A stretch of 64,000 nucleotides of DNA from Nitrospirales bacterium. GTDB taxonomy: Bacteria; Nitrospirota; Nitrospiria; Nitrospirales; UBA8639. Positions within the stretch are counted from its first letter, which is position 1. Each line of letters opens with the position of its first letter. The stretch spans positions 1,632,001-1,696,000 of the forward strand of contig OY820905.2 of the NCBI GenBank assembly GCA_963555755.3, written 5' to 3'. Below are positions 49,973 through 63,700 of the stretch, piece by piece. The notes under the pieces are model-generated. The model saw nothing but the letters and a program-made list of their open reading frames with translations, did no database searches and was not told where the DNA came from. The position numbers and the translations under genes were made by a program.

Positions 49973-51406
49973 GAGTCAAGCCCAAAGTTAGTTGAAATTC
50001 TCCATGGTTCCCGGGTTCATGTTACGCGGCCTTCTTTGGTCCGGCCTTCCCAATTTTTAAGTCTCGTCGCAGGGCCTCGCGTAAGCGGGGTAAGTGCCGA
50101 TAGCCCTTCACCTTGTTGAGCCGAGGCTCGATCTCCAGCAAGGCGGTGGCCAGCCACCGCTGCCGCTGATTCGAGTTCGTCCAGCGATCCACCTTGGCAC
50201 ACCGCTCCTCCACTAAGGCATTGATGGATTCCAGGCAATTCGTTGTTTTGAAGGACAGCCCGACGAGGGCAAACACTCCCAGCCGATGCAAGGTCAACGT
50301 CTCCTCCTGGCCTTCCGCCAGACTCTGCGCGGCCGATTGGTTGCGGCCCTCCAGCTCCGTCTGCAAGCGATGCAGGGCGGTGGACGCCTCCGCATACGTC
50401 GGGCGCTGATAGGCCCGGTGCAGCCGGGCCCGCCAGGTGGCCTGTTCGCCTTTCGGTAAGTGCTTCACCACATTCTCCCGTTTGTGCCACTGGCACCGTT
50501 GGACCACGGCCGAGGCGCCAAAGGCTTGCCGCACGGCGGCGCGCAGGCCTTTGGCCCCATCAATGCTGACCAAGAGGCCGTCAGAACTGTCGAGGCCCCG
50601 GTCACATAACGAGTGCAGAAAGGGCGTCAAGACTTTCTCGTTTTCAGTCCCCGTTTCCACAAACCCCAGGACGTGTTTCTCCCCCGTGAGCGTGATGCCC
50701 ACGGCGATCACCATCGTCATGTCGGCGAAGGCTTTCCCGTCGAGAAAGACGGCAACGATGTCCAGGTCGCTCAGGTCGCGGTTCTGAAACGCCTGGAGCT
50801 GCTTGGCGCTGGCTTGCGTAAAGCTCCGAGACACCGTCGAGCTTGACAGGCCAATCGCCCCCGGGACCGCCGCTGCGGCCGCTTCATAGTTCCGGCAGGA
50901 AATCCCATAGAGCACGCGCTTGAGCAGGCCCTCATCCAGCTGGCCCGGGCCGCGAAGGTGGCCCACGCTCTGTAAGGAAATCTCACCGCCTTCCACATGC
51001 TGGACACGAGGGATCCGAACCGGATGGCGTTGACCCGCCAGTTGGACACTCCCCGGATTGCTCCCATGCCGATAGCCGGGCAGATGCGAAGCCTTCCGCG
51101 CATACCGAGCCCCGGCCAACGTGTACACCTCCTCCTCTAGGAGTTCTTGAATCCGCATTAAGCCCAACGGGATGAGGGCTTGAATACATTCCACCTTGCT
51201 GTTCACATCGAAGGCCTCATACTGCTCAGGCCGAATCACCCGCACCGGCCCCAACCGTTTCGCCTTCTTGCTTCTTGGTCTTGATTGCGGGATACGTTCC
51301 ATCGTGGCTCCTTTCTCGTTTGAGTAATGATGTTTAATTAGGTAATCACCATTACAACATAGCAGGGGGAGCCACTTCAAATTTCAACTAACAATAGCAC
51401 ACACTC
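49973..51406 (-). mobile_element. IS256-family element (transposase 50022-51380, probable start 51303)
   Basis: FLDG, G.T..G.K..LG, IDG..GL, QRCQWHK.EN, TTN.LES.N motifs; imperfect TIR GAGT....GTTAGTTGAAATT; no TSD. Confidence 0.88.
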
Positions 51407-56348: not shown

Positions 56349-56463
56349 GCATAGTAAGGGTAGAGTAGAGCACTGGTGCATACATGGAGCTGCTCTCGAA
56401 CGCTTCGACGCACGCGTCTACCACGGACCATAGCAGTCAGCACTTCCCAGCGCCCCCTCATCA

Positions 56464-58457
56464 GTAGGGTCGAGGACTGGCGCGCCAACGGTAGGGTTCG
56501 GTGGCTCCTCCACCCCTTTCGGAATGGGCCTCAGTCCGACTCCCCTGGTCACGGTTCCAGTCCCCGCCACCTCAAACCCGGCGTGCTGATTTCCAGCACC
56601 GGGCTTTCCTGGATGCTTCACCTCAAGGGTTATGTGACCTATCAGCCTGGAAGGACTTTCATGCCGACCCGTTGTACCGCACTCGGTAATCTCCATATAA
56701 GCCAAGTACCGTGTAGAGCCAAACCTTACTCCACCTCTTCCAGCCAAAACCTCGACGGTGGCGCACTCGCATCATGTGCCGCCGGACCTTCCGCTCCACC
56801 CAATCCTTCACGTAGGATAAACACCGACTCGCATGCCCAATCCGGAAGTAGTTCACCCAGCCCCGTACGATCGGATTGATCATGGCGATCATCCGTCCCA
56901 CCGGCTGGGATTGCCCGCGTCGGAACACTTCCTTGAGCTTCCGCAGCAACGCGGTGCGCCGCTTCACCTTCGGTATGTACTGCGGGCGCCACACTCCACG
57001 CCGCGACCGCACACGCCGAAAGTCAAAGCCCAGAAAGCCGAAGCTGCCTCCCTGACTCAGGTCCACGATTCGGCTCTTCTCCTCATTCACCTGAAGGTCT
57101 AATTGGGCCAACGCCTCTCGCAGCTTCCGCTCCGCAACCTGCGCCAGTTGTGCGTGGCGGCGATAGCCATCCACTAACACGACGAGGTCATCCGCAAACC
57201 GGACATACTCGAGATACGTATACTGGCCCTGCCGGGTTGTCTCCTTCAGCTGCTCCAGCCTCTCATCCACTTCCGTGAGATAGAGGTTGGCCAGCAGCGG
57301 GGAAATCACACCCCCTTGAGGCACCCCACGCGGGCCGGACGCCTTGACGATGAGTTTCACCAGCCGCAGGATCGCGGGATCCTGGATGCGTCGGGCCACC
57401 TTCGCCAGCAGCCGGTCATGCCGCACCGTGTCGAAGAAGGCCGCCAGATCCACATCAATCACTCGCGTCTTGTTCTGCACCATCGCCTGAGCCACCCGGC
57501 CAATCGCCTGGTGGGCTGTCCGTTTCGGTCGATACCCATACGACCCATCACGAAAATCCGCCTCAAAGATCGGTTCCAGCAGGAGCTTGAGCGCTCCCTG
57601 TACCACGCGGTCCCGAATCGCGGGTATCCCTAAGACGCGGACTCGTCCACCGCCTTTCGAAATCTCCACGTGCCGGTTCCGCATCGGTCGGTAGGTCTGC
57701 GTGACCAGTTCGTCCCGTAGTCGTGCAAGAAAGGGCTCCACCCCCGTGGCCTCGATGCCAGCAAACGTCACCCCATCAATGCCGGGGGCTCCGTTGTTTT
57801 TCTTGGCCATCGAATAGGCCGCGCGTAGCGTCGCCTCTTTGCACACGTGGACGTACAGGCCCCACACCCGCCATCGCTTCTCAGCCTTCGCCTTGACGTA
57901 GAGCCGCTGTCGCAGGTCTTGCAGTGTAATGGACGCCGTTGTCATCTCGTCCCTGCCTCCCATGTTGATCACAGCCTACAGCCAGTAGGGCTCCTTTGCT
58001 CCACAGGCATGACCCTGCTTCCTCGCTCCTACGAGCCCCTCCGCCACCCTCTCGTCTTCGGCTCACTTCCCAGAGAGCTGGTTATAGAGCCGATCTTCCT
58101 CCAGGGATTTCTCCCTGGGACGAGGAGGGCTTCTCCAGTTGCGTCGTCTGTCCTTGCTCCCGTGCTGTCGCTCTCACCCCGCCGGAGTGGCCAGGCGTCT
58201 CAGCCTTGGTTCGCCTGTCCATGCCGTCTTCGTCCTACGGACAGGGACTCGACCTCCGAGGTTTCATACTTTCGAGGCTACCTCTGCGTTCACTTGCGTT
58301 ACGGCCCGGGAACTCGCTCACCATCCTCTACGATGGCTTTGTCGATGGGCTTCAGCGTCTCGGTTTCTCTCCACGCTGCCATCCAAGCTACAGGGCTCAG
58401 GCTCTTACCCTGGTGGGCTTGCTTCCCACTGAACAGTCTCGCCTTACCTGGACACAC
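56464..58457 (-). mobile_element. Inner group II intron (1994 nt) inserted at the 3' end of the outer intron's domain V
   Basis: 5' GTGTG; DV GAAAGCCCGGTGCTGGAAATCAGCACGCCGGGTTT; 3' GACCCTAC. Confidence 0.9.
56659..57972 (-). CDS. ltrA: Group II intron reverse transcriptase/maturase (no endonuclease domain)
   Basis: GAPGIDG, R.LGIP..RDR..Q, GVPQGG.ISPLL.N, VRFADD, FLGF, domain X GWVNYF. Confidence 0.95.
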   Translation of the reverse strand: MINMGGRDEMTTASITLQDLRQRLYVKAKAEKRWRVWGLYVHVCKEATLRAAYSMAKKNNGAPGIDGVTFAGIEATGVEPFLARLRDELVTQTYRPMRNRHVEISKGGGRVRVLGIPAIRDRVVQGALKLLLEPIFEADFRDGSYGYRPKRTAHQAIGRVAQAMVQNKTRVIDVDLAAFFDTVRHDRLLAKVARRIQDPAILRLVKLIVKASGPRGVPQGGVISPLLANLYLTEVDERLEQLKETTRQGQYTYLEYVRFADDLVVLVDGYRRHAQLAQVAERKLREALAQLDLQVNEEKSRIVDLSQGGSFGFLGFDFRRVRSRRGVWRPQYIPKVKRRTALLRKLKEVFRRGQSQPVGRMIAMINPIVRGWVNYFRIGHASRCLSYVKDWVERKVRRHMMRVRHRRGFGWKRWSKVWLYTVLGLYGDYRVRYNGSA

Positions 58458-59172
58458 ATCCGTGCGTATGGTTTTCCCATACACGGCTTTCCGATGTTCT
58501 TCTTCCAGCGGCATGCGTCTGTCATCAGGCAATAGCCACATTCAGACTTGGCCTTCTGAGATAGTTTCCTCTGTAGTGTCCTGATCGTGCTCGGGGTGGT
58601 TAGCGCAATGGCAATCCCCTGATCCTCCACTCGTCGGAAACGTGAACAAAGTAGGGTCCCTTCCCTCGGGCCGGGTTGTGTTGTCCCAGGCTCTCCAACG
58701 GTACTATGAACCCCTCCGACTCCCACGACGGCCCGCAGCGATTTCGGTATCCCTTATACGCCTCAGTTGCTGGTTCTGCGCCAGCACCGTCGCGGGTCTC
58801 CCGTCCTGCACGGTGTCTCTTCCGCCACATGCCATCCCTGCTACCCCGGAAGATCCTGAGGGTGGGTGTTCGTTCTACTCCCTCAAACGGCGGCCTTCCC
58901 CTTCTGACCACAGGGTCGGCATCTCCAATTCGTTTACGAGGCTACATCTAGGTTCGCTTGCGCTACGGCCTGCGGCTTTGCCCATGGGAAACTTCAACCC
59001 CTGATTACTCAGACGCTGCTTCCTGGTGCTAGAAAGGTGTACGAACAACTCCTTTCGCGGGACTTCAACCCGCTAGACACACCGCCGATGACGGCATGCG
59101 GTCAAGTCGTCCTTTGGCGTACTTTCAATAATGCCGTTGGATGGCTTAACTCCTATTCCTTAATTGACATGT

Positions 59173-60777: not shown

Positions 60778-63700
60778 CAGGGCCATTTCATTCTTTTTAT
60801 AAGCAAGTGGTTCCATTAGGTTTTTTTGCTCTCTTTTTCAGGGCAAGGCCATACGGATGGCTACATGCGGCTTGGCCCAGAGCCATCTAAACGCCTGCGC
60901 GATATTGGTGTTGCCTTTCACGCGTAAGAGACTGATGGCATAGCGTCTCAGACAGGTCATGACCATCGGGCCATTGAGCCGTCTGATCTGACTCCGGTCT
61001 TCATCAAAGGTGACATCCAACACATAATGCTGCTTATTCTCCACACTCCAATGGTTCCGGTTTTGCGAGAGGATTTTCTGCGGCGATGCCTTCGCTGGTG
61101 ACTGACTCGTGACTCCGCATACGGTATCTACCGTCGTGATGCCCTTCTTGAGATGCGCGACTTCCCTCTCAATGCAGAAGACTTGCTGCACATGGGGAAA
61201 GGTGACAGAGGCATTCAAGGAGTCGTCACACCAGATCCTACGGGTCGTGATCCGCCCATGGCCTTTATCGGTTGTTTCAGTATCACACCGTCGTACTCGC
61301 AACGCCAAGGCCTCAATGTCGCGTTTCAAGGTCGGCTGGTTCCCCTTGACGGTGAAGACGAAGTCGGCCCCGCGTTCTTGCACAAGGTAATTTGCGATCT
61401 CTTTCTGGGTGAGGAGCGCATCCGCCGTGATGACCTTCCCTTCGATCTCCAGCTCATCGAATAAGGGACGCACGCAGGGGATCTCATTGGTCTTGGTGTC
61501 GACTTTTTTGGGGTGAGGTGGCGCCCCTCGTCATGGGTGACGGCACTGAGGACATGGGTCTGTTCGCTCGGGACCTTCGAAGTCCCCCGCATGGTCTTGC
61601 CATCAATGGCGATGCCCTGATCCTCCCCGCCGAAGGTATCCAGCCACCGGCCGAGCAGGGTATCGACTTCACAGGGGTCGACGGCATTGATAAACCGGTA
61701 GAGAGTGCTGCGGCTTGGGACGAGGTAGCGCCCTCCTCGCTTGGGACAGCCCAGCCGCTTTCTCATCGTCTGGGATAAATGCTGGGCCCAGTCCGCTATG
61801 GCTTCATACCCACGTGCTCCACACAAGGTGGCACAGAACATGATCGCGGTGAGAGCTCGTCGGGCGGATCTTCCCCCCATGTTTGCCACCTAAGCTGTTG
61901 GAATTCTTCAGGGAAAGATTGGATTGCTCTCTGGAATGTAGGCATGTAATTGTTGTTTTATCTTGACTATAATGCTTTATTTATGCTATACATAAAGCAT
62001 GTATATCGCCACCGTTCCTAACCGCACCTCCCCGCCCGCCATTTTATTGCGCGAAAGCTACCGAGCGGGCGGCAAGGTGAAGACCCGGACCCTGGCCAAT
62101 CTGACCTCGTGGCCTCCGGCTCGCGTAGACGCGCTCAAGCGCTGCCTCCGTGGGGATTTCGATGGAACGGAAGACGAGGCGGGCCCCGTGAGTGATCGGA
62201 TCTTTGGCGTCCTCTTCGCCCTGAAAGCGGTGGCCCAACGGGTGGGAGTGGTGTCGGCCTTGGGTCCGAAACGAGTAGCCAAGCTCGCCCTGTTCCTGGT
62301 GCTGGCACGAGTGGCTCATCAGGGTTCGCGGCTGTCAGCCGTGCGGTGGGCCACCGATCATGCGGTCGCTGAGGTGTTGGGATTGCCCGCCTTTGACGAG
62401 GATGACCTGTACGAGGCCTTAGACTGGTTGGGCACCCAACAAGAAGCCATCGAGAAGAAACTGTATCGGGCCTATGTCCAGCGGACCGGCCAGCCACCGG
62501 TCTTGGTGCTCTATGACGTGACCTCCTCCTATTTTGAGGGGGACAAGAATGAACTGGCCGCCTATGGGTATAACCGGGACGGCAAGAAACACAAGAAGCA
62601 GATTGTCATTGGCTTGCTGACAGGGCCGGATGGTGAGCCGCTGGCCGTCACGGTGTTCAAGGGGAATACGGCGGATCCCCGCACGGTCGCCGAGCAGATT
62701 GAACGGATCAAGACCCAGTTCAAGATCACCGACGTCGTGTGTGTGGGGGATCGGGGGATGGTGAAAGCCGCAGGCAAGGCGGCCCTCACCGAGCAGGGAC
62801 TCAAGTACCTCACCGCCCTCACTGACCCGCAGATTCGCACCTTGCTGAAGAAAGATGTGCTCCAACTCAATTTGTTTGATGAGACGATACAGGAAGTGGA
62901 GGATGGGTCTCGTCGGCTGATCCTGCGGCGGAATGAGGCGTTGCGCCACACGGTGGCCACGCGACGTCAGGACAAAGTGGCCACACTGCAGCAGAAGGTC
63001 GCGGCGCGCAATGCGTTTGTTCAGACGGCCAAGCGGGCCACCCCGGCGGCGGGACAGCGGCAGCTGACCCAGTGGGCCAAGAAGCACAAGCTCTCCGCCT
63101 TCACCACCCTCGCCCTGCAGGGGACCCAGCTTGTGGTCGAGATTGATGAGGCCAAGCAGGCCGAGGCGGCCCTGTTGGATGGCTGTTCGGTGCTGGAAAC
63201 CGATGTGGCTCGGGACACGATGGATGCCGCGACGGTGGATGCCCGGTACCGGGACCTGCAACGGGTGGAACGCGACTTCCGGACGATGAAGACGGGCTTG
63301 CTCGAACTGCGCCCCATCTTTGTGCGGAAGGAGAGCCGCACGCGTGGCCATGTCTTTGCCGCGATGCTCGCCCTGAAAGTGGCCCGGGAAGGCGAGCGAG
63401 GCCTGAAGGAGGCGTTTGGGACGACGGAGCAGAGCGCCCAGGCGCTGACCCTTCAAGACGCCCTGGGGGCCCTGTCACGATTGTGTTTCCAACGCCATGC
63501 AATCGGCGGGCAGGAGGTGCTTCAGCTGGCTCGCCCCGATGCTAGGCAGGCAACCATCTTTGCCGCATTGGGGATCACCCCGCCTGCCACCACCACACGG
63601 CCAGCCAAGGTGCATGTGTAGGCAGAGACGTGGCCTCGCCCAAACCGTGACTTCTTCAATGACATCAAAAGGTTAGAGCCAAAAATCCGCCCAAAACTCG

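Follow-up and report, generated by a model that had tools for sequence, protein, structure and literature searches.

Why does one group II intron lie within the catalytic domain V (DV) of another, and is that position a target or an accident? The question is raised by the window (the whole 64,000-nt stretch of DNA analysed here), whose minus strand carries an RT-encoding group II intron of 1994 nt nested in an ORF-less host group II intron. The locus comprises the following features.

59100-59105, minus strand: end of the host 5′ exon, TTGACC (host IBS1; host target TGACC↓C, the arrow marking the insertion point), where homology among host copies stops
58458-59099, minus strand: 5′ part of the host intron, 642 nt, comprising DI-DIV and DV minus its last base; 5′ end GCATG
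58904-58909, minus strand: host EBS1, GGTCAG, the Id3 hairpin loop in the RF02005 alignment, identical in 9/9 aligned host copies
58520-58615, minus strand: remnant of the host RT ORF, aligned to ORF-bearing copies
58458-58489, minus strand: host DV, with the triad AGC at 58488-58486, which serves the inner intron as 5′ exon
58466-58470, minus strand: IBS2, CATAC (−13 to −9), from a register scan and pair counts
58458-58463, minus strand: IBS1, ACGGAT (−6 to −1), the DV 3′ strand, whose partner is the triad
56464-58457, minus strand: inner group II intron, 1994 nt, class F/g2-like, GTGTG...CCCTAC, from 13 full genome copies and Rfam
58265-58269, minus strand: EBS2 of the inner intron, GTATG
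58237-58242, minus strand: EBS1 of the inner intron, GTCCGT, in the Id3 loop
56659-57972, minus strand: RT/maturase ORF, 437 aa, with an FADD motif and without an endonuclease domain
56575-56605, minus strand: the inner intron's own DV, with the target-equivalent hexamer CGGGTT (56580-56575) in a stem that remains paired
56464-56570, minus strand: long domain VI (DVI) of the inner intron, from a predicted fold
56360-56463, minus strand: host tail, 104 nt, restarting at 56463 with the last base of DV, then linker, DVI and 3′ end CTCTAC

One complete intron lies within another, which makes the locus a twintron, as an earlier note on this DNA had proposed; all of its motifs were found at their places on the minus strand, and there are two separate Rfam matches to domain I, RF02005 in the host (59066-58834, 63.4 bits) and RF02003 in the inner intron (58431-58294, 112.1 bits). 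The boundaries of the inner intron were set by junctions from the same genome, 14 at the 5′ end and 15 at the 3′ end, and its ends, GTGTG...AC, fit the group II 5′ GUGYG and 3′ AY. Its DV/DVI scores 36.7 bits against RF00029, below the cut-off of 40, while five sister copies score 42.6-43.4. The RT ORF matches TIGR04416 at 356.8 bits (cut-off 300), with PF00078 and PF08388 as its sole Pfam domains. The Rfam (RF00029) alignment of an uninterrupted sister host in the same genome places the insertion point at the base of DV, one base short of its last nucleotide; the triad, bulge and loop of the host thus all lie intact upstream, and DVI and the 3′ splice site are displaced. An assembly artefact was ruled out, as the copies differ, their flanks differ and the same site is occupied in other genomes. 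A host start at GTGTG (59082) was also rejected, homology and EBS1 placing the start at 59099.

The RT of the inner intron lacks an endonuclease domain, as in class F sensu lato group g2. The FADD sequence in RT5, described as typical of g2 in the accessible text of PMC3552965, is present in the window RT and in 94 of the 117 proteins of the tree set, and the long DVI and 5-nt DV loop of the predicted fold match g2 traits given in the available part of PMC3753933. The RT is 49% identical to that of B.th.I3 of pBMB67 (g2) and 37% identical to that of Ni.ha.I1 (g3); its joint node with B.th.I3, the sole g2 reference in the tree, has a support of 0.58.

Assignment of the EBSs rests on covariation, because the EBS loops were not recovered reliably when domain I was folded by itself (MFE; z = +1.0). 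In 111 related introns EBS1 forms a mean of 5.59 pairs with IBS1 at −6 to −1, compared with 2.99 after permutation (maximum 3.34 in 2000) and 2.3-2.6 in slid registers, and at least five pairs form in 102 of the 111. For EBS2, −9 to −13 was the best of the registers scanned. Changes on both sides were observed at all 11 EBS pairs in 18 rows hand-picked from the 111, a choice that leans to structure. The loops GTCCGT and GTATG, put forward in the earlier note as EBS1 and candidate EBS2, are thereby upheld. Within the genome, the three copies in which EBS1 is GACCGU all lie at ACGGTT, and two copies keep GUCCGU though they also lie at ACGGTT, with one mismatch. It is likely that the inner intron arrived by retrohoming, its EBS1 and EBS2 being complementary to the DV strand, and that it belongs to a clade for which DV is the predicted ancestral target.

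The use of DV as a target extends well beyond this genome. Relatives were drawn from genome and metagenome scans (159 loci, the best 80 and 79 of ∼600 each), with two more from a phylum search. These gave 134 5′ matches, of which 111, including the window intron, were scored; 23 were dropped for an incomplete 5′ match, a short flank, or the lack of a canonical start or of a hairpin, among them L023, a DV case by eye. The DV site is used by 43 of the 111 scored introns (from the best 80 and 79 of ∼600 each), 33 by a strict structural test, for which the background was 13 of 5000 random positions and 54 of 3330 shuffled flanks, and 10 by eye, added because hosts that end in ACGGAA and unusual loops escape the strict test. 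At 80% RT identity there are 22 clusters of DV users among 44 tree tips. Even within the DV rows alone, Watson-Crick EBS1 pairs average 5.40 compared with 4.24 after permutation (0 of 5000 as high), demonstrating that EBS1 follows the DV variant of the host, and 42 of the 48 introns with a DV-type EBS1 are located in DV. The cases include Nitrospirales, Thermodesulfovibrionales, Alphaproteobacteria, Burkholderia and Spirochaetia, together with Desulfobacterales, Acidobacteriota, Victivallales, Chlorobiaceae and Rhodothermales. Plasmid copies from four named cultured strains all occupy the DV site; in two of them a host RT is annotated immediately upstream, and these host RTs group with other RT lineages. 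Cultured carriers include Bradyrhizobium diazoefficiens NK6 (plasmid pNK6b), Paraburkholderia phymatum STM815, Caballeronia sp. SBC2 and Cupriavidus necator C39. Within the phylum, a search with the 5′ RNA gave matches in at least 17 of 301 genomes, and in none of the 24 other genomes of the organism's own family, with two candidates scored per genome. The twintron is real and its insertion point is a real, widespread homing site.

The proposal in the earlier note that the lineage specialises in the catalytic cores of other introns holds only in part. No other single target class is as large as DV, but 68 of the 111 scored relatives occupy non-DV targets, mostly as coherent sub-lineages. Judged by eye from known motifs, the sub-lineages of L020, L022, L028, L096, L108 and L140 appear to insert a short way within another group II intron, at its 5′ end; the target of L139 appears to be an RT ORF, and those of L064 and L066 transposase genes.

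The earlier note had also proposed that the lineage avoids itself. In the window, EBS1 forms only two Watson-Crick pairs with the intron's own DV against five with its target, and none of the 16 own-type DVs is occupied among the at least 41 matches of a genome scan with RF00029 (150 scored of 353 candidates). Across relatives, EBS1 pairs less with the own DV than with the target in 38 of 38 cases (means of 2.9 vs 5.4). The RF00029 consensus DV ends ACGGUU, then C, and its CGG core is kept in the other intron families of this genome (six by script, two by eye). By contrast, the core is missing from the target hexamer of the own DV in 86 of 90 relatives read, in several forms, and despite the alteration the stem is fully paired in 75 of the 90. 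Of the four introns that keep the core, two belong to the outgroup. A canonical DV is kept at outgroup loci L053, L065, L068, L075, L076, L146 and L148, and not at L072 (by eye). Where the target of outgroup loci was read it is a non-DV site.

Whether these changes serve to avoid self-targeting is a matter of interpretation. They may instead be a neutral or structural trait of the class F clade, a possibility that we consider unlikely, although it is the strongest of the alternatives weighed here. The altered DV is present also in clade members at non-DV sites, L142 targets DV despite a canonical own DV, to which its EBS1 can pair at 5/6 positions, and traits common to kin mean that the counts overstate independence. 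A neutral trait does not, however, readily account for changes that fall on the very hexamer read by EBS1, take several forms and are compensated on the opposite strand, nor for the absence of the alteration at most outgroup loci. It is also difficult to reconcile with two relatives, L023 and L120, whose EBS1 matches the altered DV and each of which is inserted in a clade member's DV, as clade members retargeted to the altered DV of kin. L027, the likely host type of L023, is from the same assembly as L023. Self-avoidance fits the data, but the altered DV is carried also by members that no longer target DV, so that a purpose is deduced, not observed.

In the RT tree (FastTree, in which the L120 protein is a chimera of two nested relatives) DV users are scattered among the basal lineages of the clade with the altered DV. 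The clade has a support of 0.87 in the full tree and 0.55 in a subsample, and DV status changes ∼20 times, compared with a mean of 35.6 and a minimum of 27 after shuffling. Given this support and the number of changes, ancestral DV homing is not proven. The likely order of events, as judged from these sequences, is that DV homing was ancestral and associated with self-avoidance, and was followed by repeated retargeting. The many relatives at the DV site are thus probably parasites of other introns that do not land in themselves.

Within the genome the inner intron is present as 13 full and 3 partial copies, whose exact ends at several sites indirectly suggest splicing and retrohoming. Its 14 5′ junctions comprise nine in the DV of the host family, one each in that of a related and a third family, two head-to-tail junctions and one in a formate-tetrahydrofolate ligase gene, such that 11 of the 12 non-tandem copies occupy the DV position across three host families, in agreement with DV being the homing site here. 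Full pairing of EBS1 and EBS2 (G-U allowed) is possible at 168 genome positions, of which 6 are occupied and 162 empty; base pairing alone is thus insufficient to explain the preference, which requires an extra determinant or the purging of genic insertions. Empty DV sites also remain, including one perfect match (C1:228423). The only non-tandem copy outside DV, at C1:1562261 (L195), lies in sense orientation at ACGGAC in the ligase gene, a site with a perfect IBS1 and no IBS2; the downstream part of the ligase frame has a stop codon.

These distributions could arise through survival, the intron inserting wherever its EBSs pair, with genic insertions purged and harmless DV insertions persisting. 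Such a filter competes with an active preference for DV and not with the EBS assignment. The few occupied positions among the 168, the copy in the ligase gene and the other targets used by many sub-lineages are all compatible with it. We nevertheless consider a filter improbable as the whole explanation, since it leaves unexplained that EBS1 matches the DV strand across 22 RT clusters and changes in step with DV variants, and since intergenic sites outside DV would also be harmless.

All 13 inner intron sites are oriented with the leading-strand sense by GC skew. This is in keeping with the fork-primed mobility reported for endonuclease-less introns in the text available for PMC4424553, although the hosts share the same bias, which is not therefore independent. 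At C1:2160017-2165998 (L185) three non-identical inner copies lie head to tail in a single host DV, and a tandem junction is also found at L123. A 60-nt contig, with 30 letters on each side (one fewer than the threshold for a bridging contig), crosses the tandem junction in runs X15 and X18, which are possibly the source sample; the junction is absent from contigs of runs X1 and X2. Insertion behind the intron's own 3′ end through EBS pairing was ruled out, as CCCTAC pairs poorly.

A DNA element apparently uses the same DV hairpin. All four copies of an insertion sequence, which has terminal inverted repeats of 23 bp and an ORF of 596 aa, lie in the upper stem-loop of a group II DV (C1 777391-775533, 1026938-1024326, 1252974-1251116 and 3060449-3058591; L182, L183), each with an 11-bp target duplication. 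The ORF has no Pfam match and falls in an ESM Atlas cluster named ‘putative transposase’ (0.98). In the neighbourhood of the twintron there are transposases of IS256 (50022-51380, minus strand), a split ISAs1 (60838-61889, minus strand) and IS1634 (61999-63621, plus strand), and the locus is flanked at 59851-59624 and 55980-55500 by short repeats that recur dozens of times across the genome.

The host requires a qualification of its description in the earlier note as ORF-less. There is indeed no ORF in the window copy, but the intron derives, through deletion of the ORF, from RT-encoding copies that the same genome carries. All seven ORF-less host copies share one 1226-nt deletion, with a common breakpoint near 58529, and have 5′ parts of identical length. 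Empty repeats of the TGACC↓C-type site adjoin some host copies, and TTGACC pairs with the host loop GGTCAG. The RT of the host family falls with g3 references on the RT tree. From 59099 to 59082 (minus strand) the family's GCATG start is followed by a small hairpin ahead of the domain I stem; relatives L077, L078 and L080 have a similar short 5′ extension and the same TGACC↓C-type target. Membership of the 5′-extended IIB1 clade, characterized by a 300-700-nt insert at the base of DI and a CL1 RT in the accessible text of PMC12584367, was ruled out, as the extra piece is ∼17 nt and the host RT groups with g3. A third intron family splits the RT ORF of host-type introns, generating triple nests (C1 799543-801407, 3055549-3058437 and 5730-8292).

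The inner intron is present in 7/7 ORF-less hosts, and no empty ORF-less host was found in the assembly. The twintron might thus have spread as a unit, by composite retrohoming, DNA duplication or gene conversion, and the mosaic structure of some inner copies could be viewed in the same light. This scenario appears more doubtful still than a survival filter, in view of identical hosts that hold different inner haplotypes, near-identical inner copies in different hosts and in a non-intron gene, and host copies with precise ends at unrelated flanks. The incongruence between host and inner haplotypes favours separate invasions of the hosts.

Insertion moves the host DVI and 3′ splice site 2 kb from DV. 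Branching depends on a short DV-DVI linker. A linker of 3 nt is typical according to the portion of PMC1865049 available. Given the displacement of DVI, correct host splicing would need the prior removal of the inner intron. It is very improbable that the host need not wait, with its upstream DI-DV, which is complete save one base, or the inner DV/DVI driving a hybrid reaction to the inner 3′ splice site, as no host copy without a tail occurs among the inner 3′ junctions and the linker dependence of branching also opposes such a reaction. Among the contigs listed from two RNA-labelled and two unlabelled runs, none joined the sequences on either side of the inner intron or of the twintron; contigs can reveal only presence, and the RNA runs may contain DNA, so that this absence counts neither for nor against splicing. 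The host intron is located between genes, and the splicing order would thus cost the cell little.

Retrohoming into DV would proceed as follows. The absence of an endonuclease and the strand bias suggest that the lariat RNP released by splicing enters single-stranded DNA at the replication fork by reverse splicing. The RNP would read the DV 3′ strand, with EBS1 tracking local DV variants, and because DV is the most conserved group II sequence any resident intron would provide a harmless, transcribed landing site. Compensatory changes in exactly the target hexamer of the clade's own DV would prevent self-invasion. With both IBSs upstream of the insertion point and only loose reading of the +1 base, a site already filled could be hit again, producing tandem copies. 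In its broadest form the proposal is that a cross-phylum class F clade behaves as hyperparasites of group II introns through the universal DV strand, that it is immune through the compensatory rewriting of its own helix and chased by retargeted relatives in an arms race, and that resident introns are silenced or delayed; we judge this wider proposal to be evenly balanced.

The target is the catalytic helix common to all group II introns, and would thus offer a perpetual, host-neutral homing site in any intron-bearing genome. Homing to DV would explain the odd DV sequence of a whole clade, and makes self/non-self discrimination by a ribozyme directly testable in harmless strains that are in culture; a DV-inserting intron might also be put to use for inactivating or counting the group II introns of a genome. 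Standard intron pipelines discard or overlook twintrons, according to the available text of PMC4028801 and PMC8919778, and the pattern could therefore be widely overlooked. No report of a DV-homing intron lineage was found in the literature searched, in which key papers and the intron database, which may mention DV insertions, were incompletely covered. Introns that home to introns and one DV twintron are already in print; new, with respect to that literature, is a DV-homing lineage and target class.

Several known systems share elements of the arrangement. The g2 introns of class F, exemplified by B.th.I3 of pBMB67, resemble the inner intron in having FADD, an RT-X of ∼435 aa and a length of ∼1990 nt; Table S2 of PMC3552965 gives loci of the group as a transposase, a hypothetical protein and non-coding DNA, the accessible text makes no mention of a DV target, and the pBMB67 copy of B.th.I3, unlike the inner intron, lies outside DV. 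In EcKTE56.groEL a second copy likewise occupies the 5′ exon-intron junction of the first, although this is an IIB1/CL1 intron with an endonuclease, in groEL and under laboratory expression (PMC12584367, as far as available). The Trichodesmium Tr.e.I7/I8 pair is also a bacterial twintron, for which sequential splicing has been demonstrated, whereas its inner intron lies in domain I at a single protein-gene locus (available part of PMC4649490). TeI3-in-TeI4 of Thermosynechococcus elongatus provides a parallel in which dispersed hosts were invaded repeatedly and independently at one conserved site and an ORF-less family derived from one deletion is moved in trans; in contrast to the window twintron, the site lies in DIV, it is the inner intron that lacks an ORF, and a single species is involved (PMC2882425, accessible text). 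The Euglena psbF twintron likewise consists of a group II intron within domain V of another, but is a single chloroplast locus for which the available text of the review (PMC8393795) gives no homing lineage, EBS covariation or exact position.

A parallel in behaviour is offered by the YADD-homing introns M.a.I5, UA.I3, P.l.I2 and B.th.I3 of strain ATCC 35646, which home into RT motifs of other introns (accessible text of PMC2504315); nested intron arrays of M. acetivorans are likewise described in the available part of PMC4424553. Like the inner intron, these elements have no endonuclease, place IBS1 and IBS2 in a conserved catalytic motif of other introns and form twintrons and repeated nests. 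The accessible parts of both papers describe no alteration of the introns' own target, whereas the own DV is altered here. The inner intron works alike but is not itself a YADD-homing intron of the M.a.I5 type, as its IBS1 and IBS2 are in DV and not in RT active-site codons: the YADD-homing introns target a motif of the RT ORF, the inner intron DV of the ribozyme.
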